A stretch of DNA of 64,000 nucleotides, from positions 37,466-101,465 of the forward strand of contig MFJV01000001.1 in NCBI GenBank assembly GCA_001780985.1, written 5' to 3'. A model generated the notes under the pieces. It made no database searches. It was not told the origin of the DNA and saw only the letters and a program-made list of their open reading frames with translations. The translations under genes were made by a program, and so were the position numbers. This stretch comes from Candidatus Gottesmanbacteria bacterium RIFCSPLOWO2_01_FULL_43_11b (GTDB lineage Bacteria; Patescibacteriota; Microgenomatia; UBA10105; UBA927). Positions 4,392-43,949 of this stretch are shown here, one piece after another (position 1 is the first letter of the stretch; every line of letters begins with the position of its first letter).

Positions 4392-4556
4392 AGCGGGGTT
4401 ATCCCGTTTTTAACGGGACATCCCGACTGTACGGTCGGCCTACGTATTTCGCGTAGTCATGTCCTATTATGGACTCGTGGGCTTTAACCACCGATTGGGA
4501 CTTCCTGCCCTCCGTAGCTTTATGCGAAGGACGGGTCACCCTACCCCGAAGGATAC
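4392..4556 (-). promoter_or_regulatory. FMN riboswitch (RFN element)-like aptamer in the 5' UTR of the EamA transporter
   Basis: Minus-strand RNA reads CCUUCGGGGUAGGGUGA ... AAGCCCACGAGUCC ... CUACGCGAAAUACGUAGGCCGACCGUACAGUCGGGAUG ... closing helix ACCCCGC. The order and sequence of these segments resemble the conserved RFN blocks CUUCGGGGCAGGGUGA / AGCCCGUGACC / GCCGACAGUGAAAGUCUGGAUG. An RBS-proximal hairpin follows. Confidence 0.45.
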
Positions 4557-5584: not shown

Positions 5585-6352
5585 TTAGTTAAAAACGATT
5601 GCGGGAGGAATGCTGATGCGATCAGCGATCGAATAGAGTTCATTCGCCTCAAATCCGAGGATTTCCGGCAAGTAAAGTATCGCCCGCATATTTTTAGCAA
5701 GAGGAGGAGGGTAGGAACTATCAAACTCGCTTTCTCTCGCAATAGTAGCAATATAGAAATGTTCTATCCCAAGTAACTCTGCCGTAGCTCGAACAGTCGC
5801 ACCCGTGCTATAAACATCTTCTGCAATTGTAAGGCCATACCCATCCGGAGTAAGTTTTGCAATCGCCCTTCGGTCTTCCGGCATTATTCCGACATATTTC
5901 GCCTTTCCGGTCGCAAGCCGTGTCACGGGTACATATGCTACTGCGACATCTCCTGTGATATGCTTAACCTCATCGGCGGACTCTCCTCCTATTAACTGAA
6001 TTACTTTCTGCGGTTTTTTGTGAAGAATTGCAATTGCGGTGTCTATAAAAAGACCTGATTTGGTTGATGGTTCTTTAATAACAATCCTGGGTTTCATTTT
6101 TTCAAGTAGACCGGCCATTTCTTTTGAAGATGCAAGTGCCAGTTCATAATTTATGTTTGGATCGGGTATGAAAAAAGCGATTGCTTTCGATTGATTGTCA
6201 CCGACATTCACGAGAGGTAATCCAAAACGACGACCACCGAGTTTTATGGGAAGCCAACGTTTGCCTTCAAAAAGGATAATATCTTCTTTACCATATACAT
6301 CTGGTTTTCCGATAATCATATCGTGCACTCGTTCGAAATAGGGGATTGGCAT
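5585..6352 (-). CDS. Type I phosphoribosyltransferase-domain protein
   Basis: C-terminal LTIAEDVYSTGATVRAT resembles the PRPP-binding motif of type I PRTases. N-terminal about 150 aa unassigned. Confidence 0.45.
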   Translation of the reverse strand: MPIPYFERVHDMIIGKPDVYGKEDIILFEGKRWLPIKLGGRRFGLPLVNVGDNQSKAIAFFIPDPNINYELALASSKEMAGLLEKMKPRIVIKEPSTKSGLFIDTAIAILHKKPQKVIQLIGGESADEVKHITGDVAVAYVPVTRLATGKAKYVGIMPEDRRAIAKLTPDGYGLTIAEDVYSTGATVRATAELLGIEHFYIATIARESEFDSSYPPPLAKNMRAILYLPEILGFEANELYSIADRISIPPAIVFN

Positions 6353-29269: not shown

Positions 29270-29371
29270 TGATGGTTTTCTTAAATATGGGGAGCTCGTG
29301 AAACGGGCTGAGAGTTCCGTCAGTAGACGGATGACCCTTTGAACCTGTTCGGATAATGCCGGCGGAGGGAC

Positions 29372-30064
29372 ATGAACGTAGAACGCGTATTTCTCAAACG
29401 AATCGATAAAGCAAATCTCGTGTGTCAACAACACCAAATTTGTAACCACGACCACAAGCATCACAAACGCGTTCTTGAAAACGCACTTGTTATAAACAGC
29501 ATCCTACCAAAACCTTTTAACGAACGGGATATACATACACTTGTTCTCGGCCATGACATCGGCTATAGTTGCCAAGGAATTGTCTGGGTAGGGAAAAATG
29601 CTATTAATCATGCTCAACGAGGTAATGAAGTTCTCAAACGCGCTGCGACAATATTTCTGAGAGGCCAAGAAAAAATCGCCGTAGTCGCGCTTATTAATAC
29701 ACTCCCCACAAACACAAAAGAAGCCATAGCACGTCTTGAGGCAACCGATCCTCTTCCTGCCGCAATTAAACTGGCTGATTGTCTAGACTACTTTCACACT
29801 GATCGTGTCAAGCATGTCCCTCAACCCTATCCTGACGAACATAACTACTACTTTTTAGCTAAGAGTGTTACGTCATACACAATCCATAACGAAGCACCCA
29901 AAACACTCGCATGGACCATTGATCTCAAGCCGGGCGTCGACAAAACCTTGTGGGAGTCGACCGCACAAGCAAATTTTCAACAAATTTTTACTCTTGCAGA
30001 ACTCTTTGCACAACGACTGCATTTTACATTTCGACTCGCATTGACATTGAATGGGGAGGCATGA
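29372..30064 (+). CDS. Hypothetical protein, possibly an HD-domain phosphohydrolase
   Basis: H..H...LVLGHDIGY...D pattern compatible with an HD domain. Weak. Confidence 0.3.
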   Translation: MNVERVFLKRIDKANLVCQQHQICNHDHKHHKRVLENALVINSILPKPFNERDIHTLVLGHDIGYSCQGIVWVGKNAINHAQRGNEVLKRAATIFLRGQEKIAVVALINTLPTNTKEAIARLEATDPLPAAIKLADCLDYFHTDRVKHVPQPYPDEHNYYFLAKSVTSYTIHNEAPKTLAWTIDLKPGVDKTLWESTAQANFQQIFTLAELFAQRLHFTFRLALTLNGEA

Positions 30065-38207: not shown

Positions 38208-40758
38208 GGGTGGGGGTACTGTAGGGTTGGTTGACACCTATACGAACTTGGGTTTCGGCGCTTCTTCCGGAATTATCATACGCTTTTGCTTTAATCGTGT
38301 GATTGCCGTTGCTCATTGAAATCGTTTCCGTGATTTTATTGGATGACCTGTCCTTGACAAGGCTTCCGTCAAGGTAAAGTTCAATTTTTGTAATATCACT
38401 GTTGCTTCCTGCCTCAGCTACGACTTTCACATTATTATCATTGACCTGCGACGTATCTCCGGGTTCTTTAATGGAAACCACAATATCTTCTGCACCGGAG
38501 GCAACTTCTGTTGGGGGATGGAACTTGCTATCTGATTGACTGGCTACCCAGGCATCAATTGCTTCCTGCCATCTGTTTTTTCCGTCAGTTGAAACCGGAT
38601 CATCTTCTTTAAATACAACAAATGATTTTGCATCATATTCACCTTTTGCAATATCAACGCTGCTTGCAAGTTTATTGCTGTCTTTCCTTGAAATTTTAAG
38701 CTGCTGGTAAATATATGCAGGTCCGGTTGGTTCTGTTCCCCGAATAAATAGCTCTTTTCTCGTCGCACTTCCCTCAAATGGTAATCCTCCGCCATAGGCG
38801 TCTACGTCTATTTCAACAATTGAATCCGGTCGTCGAAATTGTTCATCGGGAATATCTTTAATCACTTCCCGCATGATACGGTTCCAAATGGGAGCCGCAC
38901 CGGTAACTCCGGATGCTAACGACGGATGCATGGGAGAATTGTCGTTATTTCCAACCCATGTTCCGACCACTCGTGTCGTGGTGTATCCAATTGTCCAGTT
39001 GTCGCGTTTATCATCTGTGGTTCCGGTTTTGACGGCAACGGTACTCCCGGGAATATAGAGATACGAGCGAAGCCCGAATATTTCCTTACGTGCTTCATTA
39101 TCCGAGAGAATATGGGAAATAAGATACGCAACATCTTCTTCCAAAACCCGTCTTCCGGCTATGGGTTTGTGTTCATATAAAACTTTTCCCTTCTGATCAA
39201 CGACTTTGAGGACCGATACAGGATCCATGCGATTCCCGCCGGTTGCAAGTACTCCGAAAGCTGTTGCCATGTCAATGAGCCGAATCTCACCACCGCCTAA
39301 TGTTAGGGATAATCCTATTCGCCGAATATTAGCATCGGTCGGTTCCAATGTAGTCAGCCCCATATCAAATGCTGTTCGAAGCACATCTTTGACTCCGACA
39401 AGCGCACTCACTTTAACGGCAATTGTGTTAATTGAGTTTGCCAGAGCAAAACGGAGTTGTATTGGTCCGCGGAATTTACTATCGTAGTTTTTTGGATTAT
39501 ATTCCGGCTTTACCGGATCACCGGAGGGATATTTCGTATCAACGTCTAAAAGAAGCATTGAGGGGGTATATCCTTTTTTAAATGCAGCAGCATAGGTTAT
39601 TGGTTTAATTGAACTTCCCGGCTGCCTCAATCCTTGGGTAACCACATTAAACATGAGTCCACCGCTATCGGTTGCCACGTAATCTTTACTTCCTACCATT
39701 GCCAAAATTTCACCGCTTGTTGCGTCTGTGACAATTGCAGCACCGTTACTTACCTTCAGTCCTTTGGCTTTATTAACTTCTTCTTTAACAATAGTTTGGG
39801 CTTTTTCCTGAATTTTCCAGTCAAGAGTTGTCGTGACAATGAGTCCTCCTGAATCAACTGCCTTTGATCCTAATTTTTCAACGAGTTGGTCGCGGACATA
39901 GGCGACAAAATGAGGCGCACGTAGCCCCACATCACCTTGAGTAAATTGAACTTTTTCAAGCTCTTCTCTTATTTGTGTTTCTTGAGTAGCTGAAATATAG
40001 CCATCCTCACGCATCCGTCGAAGAACTGCTTGGCCGCGGTTTACATATGCTTTATCTTCACCGGTAAAAGGGGAATAGCGTGATGGCGCTTGAGGAAGTC
40101 CGGCTAAAATAACAGACTCAACTAACGTAAGATCATGTACTGGTTTTGCAAAATAGTATTCAGATGCCGCAACGACTCCGACAGCGGTTCCGCCGTAGGG
40201 CGCTTCGTTGAGATACATTTGCAAAATTTCATCTTTGCTGTATTTTCGTTCAATTTGAATCGAAAGAATTGCTTCTTTAATTTTTCTGGGCAGCGTACGT
40301 TCCTGGGTAAGGAGCGCGTTTTTCACCAATTGCTGGGTTAGCGTTGATCCTCCCTGACAGCGCCTGGTTAATACACAGGAAACTAGTCCTCTGACAATTC
40401 CTGCTGTCGATAGCCCCTGATGTTCGTAAAAACCTTTATCTTCTATTGCAACGGTTGCGTCTTTAAGGTGTTGGGGGATATCTTCTGCTTTAACTGGGAT
40501 TCTATTTTCGTTTTCAAAAATATCGTAGAGTTTTTCGCCGTTTCGATCGAGGATTTCCGTTGACAGTCCTTCAACGCGTCGTACTTTATCAGGGCGGGGG
40601 AGGTCTTTAGCGTACCAGGCAAACATGATGCCGGTCATAAGTGTTAAACCTACAATTGCAAGAAATCCTACTGTTGCAACACTGGACCAAAATTTAAGCC
40701 GTGCACTCCTCGTTCCGAACATCCTCTTCCTCTGCCGCTCCATAAAGTAATCGTACAT
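38191..40758 (-). CDS. Class A penicillin-binding protein (glycosyltransferase plus transpeptidase) with C-terminal Ig-like and Pro/Thr-rich extensions
   Basis: N-terminal TM. GT51 motifs (EDKGFYEHQG, RQGGSTLTQQ). Transpeptidase SSIKP, SxN and KTGT. C-terminal PYSTPTPTPTP. Confidence 0.85.
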   Translation of the reverse strand: MYDYFMERQRKRMFGTRSARLKFWSSVATVGFLAIVGLTLMTGIMFAWYAKDLPRPDKVRRVEGLSTEILDRNGEKLYDIFENENRIPVKAEDIPQHLKDATVAIEDKGFYEHQGLSTAGIVRGLVSCVLTRRCQGGSTLTQQLVKNALLTQERTLPRKIKEAILSIQIERKYSKDEILQMYLNEAPYGGTAVGVVAASEYYFAKPVHDLTLVESVILAGLPQAPSRYSPFTGEDKAYVNRGQAVLRRMREDGYISATQETQIREELEKVQFTQGDVGLRAPHFVAYVRDQLVEKLGSKAVDSGGLIVTTTLDWKIQEKAQTIVKEEVNKAKGLKVSNGAAIVTDATSGEILAMVGSKDYVATDSGGLMFNVVTQGLRQPGSSIKPITYAAAFKKGYTPSMLLLDVDTKYPSGDPVKPEYNPKNYDSKFRGPIQLRFALANSINTIAVKVSALVGVKDVLRTAFDMGLTTLEPTDANIRRIGLSLTLGGGEIRLIDMATAFGVLATGGNRMDPVSVLKVVDQKGKVLYEHKPIAGRRVLEEDVAYLISHILSDNEARKEIFGLRSYLYIPGSTVAVKTGTTDDKRDNWTIGYTTTRVVGTWVGNNDNSPMHPSLASGVTGAAPIWNRIMREVIKDIPDEQFRRPDSIVEIDVDAYGGGLPFEGSATRKELFIRGTEPTGPAYIYQQLKISRKDSNKLASSVDIAKGEYDAKSFVVFKEDDPVSTDGKNRWQEAIDAWVASQSDSKFHPPTEVASGAEDIVVSIKEPGDTSQVNDNNVKVVAEAGSNSDITKIELYLDGSLVKDRSSNKITETISMSNGNHTIKAKAYDNSGRSAETQVRIGVNQPYSTPTPTPTP

Positions 40759-40779
40759 AGGTACTATTCTACTTGATAC

Positions 40780-40808
40780 TTGAAAAAAATGACAAATTGT
40801 GGTATAGT
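40780..40808 (+). promoter_or_regulatory. Sigma70-type promoter (TTGAAA-17-TATAGT) driving the T-box-like leader
   Basis: Consensus-like hexamers with 17-bp spacing. Confidence 0.5.
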
Positions 40809-40814
40809 AGATTC

Positions 40815-41131
40815 ACAATTGAATAGGAAAAGCGTTGAAAGAGACTCTAGTAGATGGCTTATTGAGACATAAGAGAGAAGACGGTTGTTGCAAGATCTTC
40901 CGTTAATAAGCAATCGAATTACCCTCTGGAGCTGAGTAAAATCCGGGTAAGCCCGTAAGCGCTGAAAGCGAATGTTGCCAAAGCAAAGTTCGCAAATGAG
41001 GCTAAGGTAGAACCGACCTCTGGTCGGTTTTTTAGTGCTTTAGCAGTGCAAGGTGGTACCGCCTATTTTGAAGGCCCTTGTAAATTTCTAATCCGTTAGC
41101 TGACGGATTGGGGATTTGCAAGGGCTTTTTT
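40815..41131 (+). promoter_or_regulatory. T-box-riboswitch-like leader ending in an intrinsic terminator
   Basis: AGGTGGTACCGCC (41051-41063) closely matches the T-box AGGGUGGNACCGCG. A terminator follows (GAAGGCCCTTG...CAAGGGC + T6, 41070-41131), whose 3' arm could alternatively pair with the CAAGG of the T-box. About 230 nt of structured RNA precedes it. Confidence 0.45.
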
Positions 41132-41134
41132 ATT

Positions 41135-41204
41135 GCTGGGGTATTGGAACCGCTGGCGGAGTTTATCCCGCACCGCGGGAGAGGTTCGAATCCTCCCCTC
41201 AGCA
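41135..41204 (+). other. tRNA-like element (7-bp acceptor stem plus canonical T-arm) without a normal D/anticodon region
   Basis: GCTGGGG ... AGAGG-TTCGAAT-CCTCC-CCTCAGC-A. Acceptor pairs 1-7/66-72 include one G-U. The internal 38 nt form only two short hairpins (CCGC-TG-GCGG and CCCGC-ACC-GCGGG). Confidence 0.35.
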
Positions 41205-41226
41205 CTTATGAAAGGAGGTGAAAAGT

Positions 41227-41619
41227 ATGCCAAAAGAATTATTGTCGTCTGATTTAGTAGGATTACCCAAAAACTTTGGGAACGATCGTGAGACCGCTCT
41301 CCGAGCGATGGCCATTGATTTAAATATTGAACAGTCTCTGCTCGAACCGTTTTCGCGAACCGACCACAACATAATATTCTGGTTACTAAAAGATGATCAT
41401 ATGGAAGCGATAGGTCAGTTTATTAAAGACCCTGAAACTTTCCGCAGTGAACATCAAAAACTATTTTCAGTTGCCGAAGAACACTTACACTGGCAAGACA
41501 TATGGGTAACCGGAAATTGGTTTTGGGCGTCAACCAGAGATTTGGATCGTGCAACAAAGGATTTACAGGCTGAGTTAGACAAATTAAATCAGCCAAAGGT
41601 CGATAATCGGCCACAATGA
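41227..41619 (+). CDS. Hypothetical protein
   Basis: Strong extended SD AAAGGAGGTGAAAAGT before the ATG. No recognised domain. Confidence 0.45.
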   Translation: MPKELLSSDLVGLPKNFGNDRETALRAMAIDLNIEQSLLEPFSRTDHNIIFWLLKDDHMEAIGQFIKDPETFRSEHQKLFSVAEEHLHWQDIWVTGNWFWASTRDLDRATKDLQAELDKLNQPKVDNRPQ

Positions 41620-41647: not shown

Positions 41648-41896
41648 ATGCGTACATGTGAACATCTTGACAACGGAATGTGTCAAGGTATGAAAATTTT
41701 AAAAAATGAAAAGGGAGTCTCGTTGGCAATCAAACATTTACCTAAATTTGCAATGGCGCTTGGCGTAGATGGTGAAAATGGAAAATTTACTTGGATTGCT
41801 CAGTGCGTTGTGGCAAACGAACCTGCCAACCAAAGACATTGTTCCGATTTTAAATTTCATGAAATTTTTCACTCGGATATTGGTAAATTGTATTGA
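41648..41896 (+). CDS. Hypothetical small Cys-containing protein
   Basis: Same extended SD AAAGGAGGTGAAAATAT. 82 aa. Confidence 0.45.
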   Translation: MRTCEHLDNGMCQGMKILKNEKGVSLAIKHLPKFAMALGVDGENGKFTWIAQCVVANEPANQRHCSDFKFHEIFHSDIGKLY

Positions 41897-42016
41897 TAAA
41901 TGCCCAAACGGAGACAGGTAACCACCTTCGGCTGGGCACAAGAAATTTTTTTGTGATATACTAACGGCCTATGACAGTCCGAATACAATATTGGTACCAA
42001 TTCACTTATTCCCAAA

Positions 42017-42084
42017 CCGGGAGGGTTGGTACTGCATAAAATACTTATTTTTTAACCAACATAACTCCCGAAAGGGAGTTTTTT
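42017..42084 (+). promoter_or_regulatory. T-box-like antiterminator/terminator attenuator upstream of the racemase-tyrS operon
   Basis: GGGAGGGTTGGTACTGC approximates the T-box AGGGTGGTACCGC. GGGAGGGTTGGT can pair with ACCAACATAACTCCC. That pairing competes with the terminator CTCCC-GAAA-GGGAG + T7 (42063-42084), which ends 12 nt before the racemase ATG. Confidence 0.4.
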
Positions 42085-42096
42085 TGTGGAAATCAT

Positions 42097-42747
42097 ATGA
42101 AAACAGTAGGCATTATCGGAGGATTCGGGCCGGAAGCTACAGCACAGTTTTACATGGGGCTGACGGCTAAAACACGAACGAACATACTTGTTCGTCATGT
42201 TTTCGTGCCCAGAAAACTGGAACACGATGCCCTTATCTCGGGAAATAACTTAGATGCGTTTAAACCACTTCTTGTTTCTGCAGCAATGGAGTTGGAAAAA
42301 AACGGCGCAGATATTATTGTGCTTCCGTGTAATACGCTTCATATTCATGAAGATGCTATCCGCTCGGCTCTTGGTATACCGTTTATCAGCATTATCGAAG
42401 AAACTGCGCGGTTTCTTCACAAACAAAATATCTCAAAAATCGGATTTCTTGGAACACGTGTTACTATTCGAGAAAATTTATTCAAAAAAAGAGCAAACGG
42501 CACCACATTTATTACGATTCCTTCTTCAGTACAACGACGTATTGATTTTGGACTTGACCAGTTTGTCGGAGAACAAAAAGATAAAAATTTAAAATCTGCT
42601 CTCCATGAATCTTTCCGGTTTTTCCGTAACAAAAACGTTCAGGATGTGCTTCTGGCATGCACGGATTTTCATGGTCTTTGTCCCAATGGTGTGCGGATTC
42701 ACGATACACTCGATATACTGGTTCGTGCGACAATAGATATGATATAG
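42097..42747 (+). CDS. Asp/Glu/hydantoin racemase family protein (aspartate-racemase-like)
   Basis: GIIGGFGPEATAQFY, VLPCNTLH and LACTDFH match the two-Cys racemase family signature. Confidence 0.65.
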   Translation: MKTVGIIGGFGPEATAQFYMGLTAKTRTNILVRHVFVPRKLEHDALISGNNLDAFKPLLVSAAMELEKNGADIIVLPCNTLHIHEDAIRSALGIPFISIIEETARFLHKQNISKIGFLGTRVTIRENLFKKRANGTTFITIPSSVQRRIDFGLDQFVGEQKDKNLKSALHESFRFFRNKNVQDVLLACTDFHGLCPNGVRIHDTLDILVRATIDMI

Positions 42748-42761
42748 TTAAGGAGAAAACT

Positions 42762-43949
42762 ATGGATAATGTTGAGGAATTATTGACGCGTGGAGTTGAA
42801 AATATTATTCCGAATAAAGAAAAACTTCGGAAGCTTCTTGAGAGCGGCCTGCCTGCGCAGGCAGGTAAAAAGCTCAATATTTACCTGGGGATTGATCCCA
42901 CAGCTACACAAATTCACATTGGCCACGCAGTACCTCTTCGAAAACTTAATGCGTTTGCCCAACTTGGTCACAATGTTACGTTTCTCATCGGTGATTTTAC
43001 GGCATTAATAGGGGATACGTCAGATAAAGATAGCGAGCGCCCCGTATTAACCAGTGAACAGATTAAAGAGAATTTTCAAACATACAAAAAACAAGCGGAA
43101 AAAGTTTTGGATTTTTCCAAAGTTAAAGTTCGTTTTAACAGTGAGTGGCTCAAAGATTTGAAGTTTGCTGACATTGTGAAATTATGTCAGCATTTCTCAG
43201 CCGGAGATTTTGTCGGTCGCGAGCTTATTAAAAAAAGATTACAGGAAGGCAAAAAAGTTGGTCTTCACGAACTTCTTTACCCGGTAATGCAAGGGTACGA
43301 CAGCTATTTCATGGACACCGATATCCAATTGGGTGGTACTGACCAAACATTTAATATGCAGGCGGGTCGTGTTTTTCAAAAAGATTTACGTAATAAAGAA
43401 TCGTTTATTATTGCCAATGGTTTTCTGGACGGAACAGACGGCAGGAAAATGAGTAAAACATGGAATAATGCAATCTGGTTGACAGACGAACCTAACGATA
43501 TGTTTGGCAAGGTTATGTCGTTATCCGATACCCTCATTGTTTCCTACTTTACTCTGGCAACCAATGCGTCAATCGATGAAATCGAGTCAGTCAAAAAGAG
43601 GCTAAGTAGCAAAGAGAACCCTATGAAACTCAAAATTGATCTTGCGCATCGCATGGTTACGGAACTTCATAGTAAAGCTCTTGCTAATGCAGCTCAAAAC
43701 GAATTCGAGCGGGTCCATCAAAAAGGAGATACACAATCCGTTTCTGCGCCGACACTTAAAGCAACAGCGGGACTTACTCTTACTGATGCGTTAATCACCG
43801 GTAGTCTTGTACAGAGTAAGTCGGAAGTAAAAAGACTCCTTCAACAGAAAGCGATCGAACAAAACGGAGTAGTGGTAACCAACGATACAAAAGTTTCAGC
43901 AGGTGATATACTGAGAATCGGTAAAAAGAAATTCCTCAAACTCGTATGA
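42762..43949 (+). CDS. tyrS: Tyrosyl-tRNA synthetase with a C-terminal S4 domain
   Basis: HIGH motif (IHIGHAV), KMSKT in place of KMSKS, GDFTALIGD, C-terminal S4-like region. Confidence 0.8.
   Translation: MDNVEELLTRGVENIIPNKEKLRKLLESGLPAQAGKKLNIYLGIDPTATQIHIGHAVPLRKLNAFAQLGHNVTFLIGDFTALIGDTSDKDSERPVLTSEQIKENFQTYKKQAEKVLDFSKVKVRFNSEWLKDLKFADIVKLCQHFSAGDFVGRELIKKRLQEGKKVGLHELLYPVMQGYDSYFMDTDIQLGGTDQTFNMQAGRVFQKDLRNKESFIIANGFLDGTDGRKMSKTWNNAIWLTDEPNDMFGKVMSLSDTLIVSYFTLATNASIDEIESVKKRLSSKENPMKLKIDLAHRMVTELHSKALANAAQNEFERVHQKGDTQSVSAPTLKATAGLTLTDALITGSLVQSKSEVKRLLQQKAIEQNGVVVTNDTKVSAGDILRIGKKKFLKLV

Follow-up and report, generated by a model that had tools for sequence, protein, structure and literature searches.

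In the 64,000-nucleotide (nt) stretch of Candidatus Gottesmanbacteria bacterium RIFCSPLOWO2_01_FULL_43_11b analysed here (contig MFJV01000001.1; referred to as the window), a tyrosine-specific T-box riboswitch is followed by a 70-nt element which, judged from its sequence, is a truncated derivative of tRNA-Tyr(GUA). The tRNA-Tyr genes standing behind the homologous T-box in related genomes have the same acceptor stem, T-arm and discriminator. An earlier note on this DNA had suggested a degenerate tRNA or a tRNA mimic, and the comparison with relatives now points specifically to a truncated tRNA-Tyr. We consider it somewhat probable (about 55%) that the element is the bacterial counterpart of a plant-mitochondrial t-element, i.e. 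a cutting signal for RNase P and RNase Z which would separate the riboswitch leader from the downstream mRNA.

The T-box leader

The features of the leader region are as follows.

40780-40808, plus strand: promoter-like site (−35 TTGAAA, 17-nt spacer, TG-extended −10 TATAGT; 10/12 consensus matches)
40826-41082, plus strand: T-box leader (RF00230 full length, model positions 1-219, 80.5 bits)
40832-40932, plus strand: Stem I with K-turn (GCGUUGA.../...CUGGAGC), S-turn (AGUA / GAA), AG bulge (AGAGA) and distal loop GGUUGUUGCAA, according to the Rfam alignment
40920-40922, plus strand: specifier codon UAC (Tyr) in the context GAA-U-UAC-C
41011-41033, plus strand: lineage-specific insertion in Stem III, an 8-base-pair (bp) hairpin AACCGACC-UCU-GGUCGGUU followed by a U-run
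41047-41082, plus strand: antiterminator with helix A1 (41047-41053 / 41076-41082), bulge (41054-41060) and helix A2 (41061-41064 / 41072-41075)
41070-41131, plus strand: intrinsic terminator, a 28-bp hairpin (41070-41129) and a six-U run (41126-41131)

The promoter-like site at 40780-40808 is divergent to, and overlaps, a promoter-like site of the PBP1A gene on the minus strand, and a structured leader of about 320 nt lies on its 3' side. Both the near-consensus promoter and the leader were found at, or within 1-2 nt of, the places where the earlier note had put them. What it had called a T-box-like leader is matched by RF00230 over the full length of the model, with E-values of 8.8e-18 in the local scan and 8e-16 over the whole window, and it is the sole T-box that Rfam finds in the 64 kb. 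The match scores below the RF00230 gathering score of 93 bits and nothing is reported at the default Rfam threshold; our permissive Rfam scan was run at E <= 10 over 40650-41350. Four orthologous leaders exceed the gathering score (95.4-115.1 bits). When 80 reference loci anchored on the tyrosyl-tRNA synthetase gene (tyrS) were searched with nhmmer, homologous leaders were detected 5' of tyrS in 11 of them, and others were found in further contigs. The L-numbers used below denote loci from these related genomes and contigs, i.e. the tyrS-anchored reference loci together with metagenomic contigs.

The K-turn, S-turn, AG bulge and distal loop of Stem I are all in register with the RF00230 alignment. 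AGAGA and GGUUGUUGCAA, which would form the platform for the tRNA elbow, match the family consensus AGAGA / GgUUGGUGaaA with high posterior probability. Reading the specifier codon, which the earlier note had proposed as a check, gave UAC (Tyr), a codon which 20 of the 23 non-redundant homologous leaders have at the same position (16 assigned by regular expression and 4 by eye).

The T-box sequence AAGGTGGTACCGCC lies at 41050-41063, and the segment 41040-41082 folded alone gives a helix, the 7-nt bulge UGGUACC and a second helix. The UGGU of the bulge, present in 23/23 non-redundant homologous leaders, is complementary to a tRNA 3' end ACCA, i.e. to one with discriminator A, which is found in every tRNA-Tyr gene of the clade. 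The terminator hairpin is exceptionally stable (−41.1 kcal/mol, z = −9.4), and none of the 200 shuffles of the sequence that served as a control was equally stable. Its 5' arm takes in 41070-41082 and thus both 3' strands of the antiterminator (A2 at 41072-41075, A1 at 41076-41082). Because these strands (41072-41082) lie within the terminator 5' strand, the antiterminator and the terminator are mutually exclusive, which agrees with the alternative pairing of the terminator arm with the T-box side described in the earlier note. By these sequence features, the leader is a full-length T-box specific for tRNA-Tyr, and it is predicted to act as a transcriptional riboswitch with tRNA-dependent read-through. 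The inserted hairpin at 41011-41033 with its U-run itself resembles an intrinsic terminator or a pause site, located 5' of the T-box sequence, and a similar structure is present in L115.

The tRNA-derived element

41135-41204, plus strand: truncated tRNA-Tyr-derived element, 70 nt (76.1 bits with the covariance model R1)

The element begins at G41135. The earlier note had placed it 4 nt after the terminator U-run; the element itself was found as described, and the distance is 3 nt by our count. Its acceptor stem consists of 7 bp (41135-41141 / 41197-41203) including one G-U pair, the third pair being U3-A70 and not G3-U70. A linker (41142-41149) with the invariant GGA at 41146-41148 leads to the central hairpin (41150-41178), which is followed by a T-arm (41181-41184 / 41192-41195) with the loop UUCGAAU and by the discriminator A41204. 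No CCA is encoded, and there is neither a D-arm nor an anticodon arm. The T-arm, the 7-bp acceptor stem and the discriminator A, as well as the missing D and anticodon arms, had already been recognized in the earlier note, and the conserved parts clearly exceed chance expectation: the T-loop sequence GGTTCGAATCC (41183-41193) occurs twice in 64 kb against 0.06 expected, the other copy being in tRNA-Lys, and for the acceptor-pair pattern one occurrence compares with an expectation of 0.00.

The element has the acceptor stem, the T-arm with a UUCRANY loop and the discriminator of a canonical tRNA, and both helices are 100% paired in all 8 copies of the element known to us. ARAGORN did not call it a tRNA, no match to RF00005 was obtained at E <= 10, and its best match in the tRNA clan was tRNA-Sec with 19.8 bits against a gathering score of 47. 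An anticodon arm with its 7-nt loop and conserved anticodon is absent; the central loops are 4-8 nt long and unrelated in sequence among the copies. An anticodon-like loop considered within the central hairpin was rejected since the loops vary in both length and sequence. The linker sequence UGGAACCGC is similar to the T-box UGGUACCGC and was considered as a second antiterminator; its flanks are unable to form helix A1 and the similarity is probably coincidental.

Directly 3' of the discriminator, a YAUGAAAGGAGG motif recurs. It is CUUAUGAAAGGAGG in the window (41205-41218) and CAUAUGAAAGGAGG in L117, and is also present in L097 and L005. The AUG of the window motif opens only a 14-codon out-of-frame open reading frame (ORF), which overlaps the Shine-Dalgarno sequence (SD) of the first downstream gene, ORF1.

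The T-box and genuine tRNA-Tyr in related genomes

In L001, L047, L005 and L002, ARAGORN detected a genuine tRNA-Tyr(GTA) gene between the homologous T-box and tyrS. The acceptor stem of these genes (GCUGAGG/CCUCAGC), their T-arm and their discriminator are the same as those of the window element. Metagenomic sequences were scanned with a pattern consisting of the T-box core, a gap, the acceptor 5' strand, a second gap and the T-loop, and a genuine tRNA-Tyr(GTA) was present at the match in 26 of the 29 loci obtained. This pattern favours one fixed acceptor sequence and a short spacing between the T-box and the tRNA, and the tRNA-Tyr start at 3-17 nt past the terminator U-run, usual in the metagenomic loci, reflects the short distance imposed by the search. 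In the tyrS-anchored loci the spacing was 125-370 nt (L001, L047, L005 and L117) or 820 nt (L002), where two small ORFs stand between the T-box with its element and the genuine tRNA-Tyr. Wherever a metagenomic contig was long enough, tyrS was located 0.9-3.4 kb downstream.

The order T-box(Tyr), tRNA-Tyr, variable cargo and tyrS is thus recurrent in many Microgenomates. In the complete chromosome OY970230.1, too, tRNA-Tyr lies behind the T-box. The cargo comprises genes for shikimate dehydrogenase, dehydroquinase, chorismate synthase, DAHP synthase, aminotransferases, racemase, methyltransferases and orphan proteins. The interval between the minus-strand PBP1A gene and tyrS, as seen in L110-L120 and in the window, is a hotspot of gene turnover which also contains a methyltransferase with Meth_synt_2 and a HEPN/nucleotidyltransferase pair; its flanks, PBP1A on one side and tyrS-recG-nusB-rnc-rpsP on the other, are syntenic. 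Within the 64-kb window, ARAGORN found no genuine tRNA-Tyr gene of this genome.

The truncated element occurs in eight distinct sequences, several of which are close kin: the window, L002 (=L119), L085, L104 (=L106), L108, L111, L112 and the divergent L007 (=L101). In four loci the element precedes a genuine tRNA-Tyr in tandem, at a distance of 12 nt in L104, L106 and L108 and of 3 nt in L112. The L111 copy keeps a hairpin at the position of the D-arm, remodelled to 8 bp with a GAAA loop, and is an apparent intermediate between tRNA-Tyr and the truncated element. According to a rough neighbour-joining tree of tyrosyl-tRNA synthetase (TyrRS), the window-type element does not occur outside one Gottesmanbacteria subclade, where its carriers are interleaved with relatives lacking it, and the L007 copy falls in a separate clade. 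The outgroups on this tree carry the T-box followed by tRNA-Tyr, which is taken as the ancestral arrangement.

Two further features were noticed at these loci. A conserved structured spacer of about 125 nt separates the T-box terminator from the tRNA-Tyr or the element in L001 (4746-4877), L112 (124-244) and L117 (2488-2615), and includes the sequence GGTTAGTT...AAATTCA.ATT...AGTTTACTAACC, which contains a hairpin, and more. L106 has a second T-box core, GGTGGNACCG, with a U-run at 5756 downstream of tyrS. Its TyrRS is only about 41% identical to that of the window, although L106 closely resembles L002 in the T-box, the element and tRNA-Tyr (>85-90% identity).

Conservation of the element

All eight copies consist of the acceptor stem, the linker, one long central hairpin in place of the D and anticodon arms, the T-arm and the discriminator A, and each of them folded independently adopts the same three-helix shape with a linker of 8-11 nt. 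The covariance model R1, which was built from these eight copies, gives them 59.6-99.3 bits, whereas genuine tRNAs reach no more than 34.6 bits. No further copy was detected with R1 in 775 kb of related sequence. The examination of relatives called for by the earlier note thus yielded eight distinct copies, every one of them downstream of this T-box.

On the alignment fitted to the model, 93.7% of the cells are paired, compared with 47-58% when the partners are slid by 1-3 columns. Four pairs are changed on both sides among the eight copies, a number to be read with the model-fitted alignment and the small sample in mind. The conservation of the sequence is more telling than these pairing statistics and supports the view that the element is probably under selection. 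The identity of the element is 89%, 90% and 93% in the pairs L002-L112, L002-L106 and L112-L106, respectively, and that of the genuine tRNA-Tyr 99%, 94% and 93%. For the window and L002, the identity is 78% in the element, 52% in the adjacent terminator hairpin and 78% in the TyrRS protein. The linker GGA (41146-41148) is invariant in 8/8 copies including L007, and may stand in for the D-loop G18/G19 by docking on the T-loop to make the tRNA elbow.

A putative processing signal

In the mechanism we propose, a sigma-70-type promoter would drive the Tyr T-box. Uncharged tRNA-Tyr would pair through its GUA anticodon with the UAC specifier and through its ACCA end with the UGGU bulge, and this pairing would stabilise the antiterminator, so that RNA polymerase could pass the terminator. 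The first segment transcribed past the terminator, and on read-through only, would be the 70-nt relic of a tRNA-Tyr gene. The relic has lost the parts needed for decoding (the D-arm, the anticodon arm and the variable arm) and has retained those needed for processing of the ends, namely the 7-bp acceptor stem with G1-C72, U8, the GG(A) linker, a canonical T-arm and the discriminator A without an encoded CCA. Cuts at G41135 and after A41204 are expected because these are the features used by RNase P, RNase Z and the CCA-adding enzyme. Cleavage by RNase P at G41135 would remove the riboswitch leader together with the very stable terminator hairpin, and cleavage by RNase Z after A41204 would leave an mRNA 5' end 9 nt upstream of the SD of ORF1. 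The identity and specificity of the T-box, the origin of the element from tRNA-Tyr, its conservation and its fold are shown by the analysis; the two cleavages and their benefit are what we infer from the conserved features.

A genuine tRNA-Tyr located at the same position presumably has to be released from the same precursor through RNase P and RNase Z cleavage, and no CCA is encoded in either the tRNA-Tyr genes or the elements at these loci. Between the discriminator and the SD lie, at the median, 8 nt in the 18 cases with genuine tRNA-Tyr and 9.5 nt in the four with the truncated element. In L090, L095, L099, L102 and L107, a long ORF, of about 270-296 amino acids when it is complete, has no SD and begins 1-3 nt past the tRNA-Tyr discriminator; in these cases RNase Z cleavage would produce a leaderless mRNA. 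The similar SD spacing and the long ORFs placed 1-3 nt after the discriminator support a role of the tRNA position in mRNA punctuation. With respect to t-elements, both the homology to a tRNA with the loss of its decoding parts and the position at an mRNA boundary, 9 nt before the ORF1 SD, were found in the window.

The protein of about 270-296 amino acids encoded after tRNA-Tyr is conserved and belongs to an unnamed family (L090 299-1180, L099 2356-3183 on the minus strand and L107 581-1471, as well as L095 and L102). It gave no match in Pfam, NCBIfam or the PDB. It was also considered as a TyrRS paralogue, which was rejected because the hhalign match was not significant (probability 0.6%, E 0.09). 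The alignment was collinear with the TyrRS catalytic domain and would be compatible with a very remote class-I synthetase-like fold.

Several observations weigh against the proposed mechanism. As regards the riboswitch, the window T-box scores under the curated Rfam threshold, and the base 3' of the specifier is C instead of the usual purine (A in some of the orthologues). As regards the element, it would be redundant for punctuation in L104, L106, L108 and L112, where a genuine tRNA-Tyr follows 3-12 nt downstream. The linker and the base of the central hairpin (GAUGGAACCGC ... GCGGGAGAGG) are invariant in sequence in 7/8 copies, which exceeds the constraint that recognition by RNase P and RNase Z alone should impose. 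The covariation statistics are modest, coming from eight unique sequences of which several are closely related. Finally, the element is dispensable, since the close relatives L115, where the T-box is directly followed by an ORF with an SD, and L001 and L117, which have the tRNA only, manage without it.

Alternative explanations

A serious rival to the processing signal, though one to which we give clearly less weight, is that the element is a stable tRNA-Tyr mimic, induced by the T-box, which would act in trans after its excision and CCA addition. It might be a ligand of TyrRS, a tyrosine acceptor for non-ribosomal use, or a partial agonist or decoy of the T-box. Two of the three surfaces by which a tRNA contacts the T-box, the elbow and the ACCA end, are retained and the anticodon is missing. 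The acceptor identity features for TyrRS, G1-C72 and A73, are present in 8/8 copies, and the long central hairpin stands at the place of the long variable arm of tRNA-Tyr. The conservation, near that of a real tRNA, reaches the linker and the hairpin base, which are not tRNA-like. The element is also the most conserved product of the window T-box unit, ORF1 being an orphan. This reading would further account for the persistence of the element at sites where a genuine tRNA-Tyr next to it makes a processing signal superfluous, and the recruitment of a pseudo-tRNA has a precedent in the tRNA-Other of Bacillus cereus (PMC3399842). On the other hand, no target or partner could be identified from the sequence, and the loops of the hairpin differ in size and sequence (AGUUUAUC, AAAAUAC, CAAAUA, AGAA), so that a conserved loop for recognition is missing. 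The element is patchily distributed and has been lost repeatedly, and the closest analogues, the plant t-elements, are not aminoacylated.

A broader version of this proposal is also speculative, and we regard it as doubtful. In Microgenomates, the Tyr T-box would control the gene of its own ligand, tRNA-Tyr, together with tyrS in a closed loop, and in one Gottesmanbacteria subclade this switch would instead induce an anticodon-less mimic, acting in trans, once excised and supplied with CCA, as a substrate or ligand of TyrRS or as a co-effector of the T-box. Such an autoregulatory loop of T-box, tRNA-Tyr and tyrS has not been described for T-boxes in the open-access literature, and, if true, the trans-acting element would be a riboswitch-controlled regulatory tRNA mimic and more than a cutting signal.

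A weaker rival than the mimic, and in our view an unlikely one, is a pseudogene without function: tRNA-Tyr would have been duplicated in tandem, and the element would be the upstream copy, decaying and passively carried along in the operon. It is true that the element is unable to decode, that the tandem of element and tRNA in L104, L106, L108 and L112 resembles the product of a duplication, that L111 resembles an intermediate of decay and that the close relatives L115, L001 and L117 lack the element. The copies nevertheless retain 78-93% nucleotide identity in organisms whose TyrRS is about 78-83% identical, whereas the adjacent terminator hairpin has drifted to 52-56%. The helices are kept with compensatory changes, the three-helix fold is predicted for each copy independently, there is no variation in the linker GGA, the T-loop or the discriminator, and the divergent L007 copy has the same architecture in another clade. 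The tandem copies differ from the neighbouring tRNA in the acceptor stem, so that gene conversion does not explain their conservation.

Site-specific integration into a tRNA-Tyr gene, with the element as the att-site scar and the genes up to tyrS as the integrated cargo, would fit the highly variable gene content between the T-box or tRNA and tyrS (racemase, shikimate enzymes, DAHP synthase, methyltransferases, HEPN/nucleotidyltransferase and orphans) and the two small ORFs flanked by the element and the genuine tRNA-Tyr in L002. It is very improbable in view of the structure: such scars duplicate only the 3' part of the tRNA, whereas the element possesses both acceptor strands, paired with each other, and a new internal hairpin. 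Moreover, no integrase gene was found in any locus examined, and only 3 nt separate the element and the tRNA in L112.

The last suggestion of the earlier note, that the whole of 40780-41204 is one unrecognised stable RNA such as a divergent tmRNA or RNase P RNA, draws on architecture only (an acceptor stem and T-arm without an anticodon arm, as in the tRNA-like domain of tmRNA) and is refuted by ARAGORN, which found no tmRNA, by Rfam, in which RF00023, RF00010 and RF00011 gave no match at E <= 10, by U3-A70 in place of the G3-U70 required for alanylation, by the lack of a tag ORF and by the full coverage of the upstream 257 nt by the T-box model. Nor did any other known RNA family account for the region.

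Downstream genes and the second leader

41227-41619, plus strand: ORF1, 130 amino acids, ATG at 41227, SD GGAGG at 41214-41218, 9 nt after the discriminator
41648-41896, plus strand: ORF2, 82 amino acids, a small four-cysteine protein
41933-42087, plus strand: second leader with a promoter-like site, a leader ORF and an antiterminator/terminator pair
42097-42747, plus strand: Asp/Glu racemase gene, upstream of the tyrosyl-tRNA synthetase gene
42762-43949, plus strand: tyrosyl-tRNA synthetase gene (tyrS), downstream of the racemase gene

ORF1 is an orphan: the homologue search returned only a fragment of itself, and there was no match in Pfam or NCBIfam. ORF2 belongs to a family of proteins of about 80 amino acids with four conserved cysteines (RxCEHL..G.C ... 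HxPKF ... C ... C.DF). The family is rare; an exhaustive HMMER search of 1.8 billion representative proteins gave eight weak or small relatives, a word-indexed search returned only ORF2 itself, and no family name could be assigned. Homologues of ORF2 are encoded in the Tyr T-box operons of L002 (3927-), L084 and L001 (5008-). No remnant of tRNA-Tyr was detected by ARAGORN or blastn in the gap between ORF2 and the racemase gene (41897-42096).

The second leader lies within this gap. Its promoter-like site (41933-41962) reads TGGGCA-18-TATACT and is followed by a near-leaderless ORF of 22 codons (41971-42039) encoding MTVRIQYWYQFTYSQTGRVGTA* and by a terminator formed by the hairpin 42063-42080 and a U7 run. 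The segment over the last leader codons (GGGAGGGUUGG) can pair with the terminator 5' arm, as in classical attenuators. We read 41933-42087, from its sequence, as a putative independent aromatic leader-peptide attenuator directly upstream of racemase-tyrS. Similar leader peptides rich in Tyr and Phe, with CUCCC/GGGAG terminators, also precede the tyrS operons of L014, L018, L021, L022, L116 and L120, and L009 has two of them in tandem. To control tyrS, Microgenomates apparently employ either a T-box or a leader peptide, or the two together.

The earlier note had treated racemase-tyrS as part of one unit with the T-box. This needs correction, because the racemase gene is directly preceded, at 41933-42087, by a separate promoter-like site, an aromatic leader peptide of 22 codons and a terminator. 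The T-box unit proper therefore consists of the tRNA-like element, ORF1 and ORF2, and transcription reading through it would meet the second attenuator. The tyrS gene of this genome would then be governed by the leader-peptide attenuator, possibly in series with the T-box.

Two other riboswitch matches were found in the window. A full-length FMN riboswitch match (RF00050) lies at 4411-4517 on the minus strand and with 55.3 bits (E 8e-10) falls short of the gathering score of 66.2; a TPP riboswitch at 29278-29387 on the plus strand scores 61.7 bits, which is above the gathering score.

Significance

T-box riboswitches are sensors of tRNA charging that control genes for synthetases, biosynthesis and transporters. 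The T-box of the window is in itself an ordinary one; the tRNA-derived module and the placement of a T-box in front of its cognate tRNA would surprise specialists. A search of open-access papers brought up neither a T-box that precedes a tRNA gene nor a T-box with a tRNA-like element behind it. With the gene of the sensed tRNA, or a conserved stump of it, as the first under T-box control, a new regulatory logic would result in which a tRNA induces its own synthesis along with that of its synthetase. The punctuation of mRNAs by tRNAs is best known from mitochondria and would be extended to free bacterial operons, including apparent leaderless mRNAs generated by tRNA 3' processing. The arrangement thus offers a concrete and testable system in the poorly understood Patescibacteria. 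Annotation pipelines miss both of its parts, the T-box owing to its sub-threshold score and the tRNA-derived element as well.

Comparison with known systems

The leader resembles the tyrS-class T-box (RF00230, Bacillus subtilis tyrS) in the K-turn and S-turn of Stem I, the UAC specifier, the distal platform motifs, the UGGN bulge fitting the tRNA discriminator, the competition between antiterminator and terminator, and the presence of tyrS and aromatic-amino-acid genes downstream. It differs from it in its host (Patescibacteria/Microgenomates), the sub-gathering score, the reduced Stem II region, the hairpin and U-run inserted in Stem III and the C after the specifier. Moreover, its first downstream product is not a protein gene but a tRNA-Tyr gene in the relatives and a truncated derivative of it in the window.

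Among the known tRNA-like structures, the tRNA-like domain of tmRNA has in common with the element an acceptor stem and T-arm, a reduced D region and a long helix replacing the anticodon arm. In contrast to tmRNA, the element totals 70 nt and has no G3-U70 pair, mRNA-like domain, tag ORF or match to the tmRNA model. The mascRNA/MALAT1 tRNA-like element (RF01684) is likewise a tRNA-like fold inside a longer transcript without a functional anticodon. The weak match of the window element to this family (19.4 bits against a gathering score of 42.5) reflects the common acceptor stem, T-arm and short middle hairpin; mascRNA is a vertebrate RNA of unrelated sequence and the likeness is in shape only.

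The plant mitochondrial t-elements are derived from tRNAs and are cleaved by both RNase P and RNase Z; they carry a CCA tail and base modifications and are not aminoacylated (Forner et al. 2007, PMC1920247; PMC11658184). The element shares with them the origin from a tRNA gene, the acceptor and T-arm features, the position at an mRNA boundary, the lack of an encoded CCA and the lack of a role in translation. Unlike them, it is bacterial and not organellar, lies 3' of a riboswitch and has its D and anticodon arms replaced by a single conserved hairpin, and its cleavage is predicted from these features. The tRNA-Other of B. cereus is also derived from a tRNA, has no function in translation and was proposed to be a structural module recruited into a larger RNA (Rogers et al. 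2012, PMC3399842). It keeps the cloverleaf and flanks a genomic island, whereas the element is truncated and located inside a T-box operon. In evolutionary terms the element is a pseudo-tRNA of the kind represented by B. cereus tRNA-Other, and in function it is probably closest to a tRNA-like processing module of the t-element or mascRNA type.

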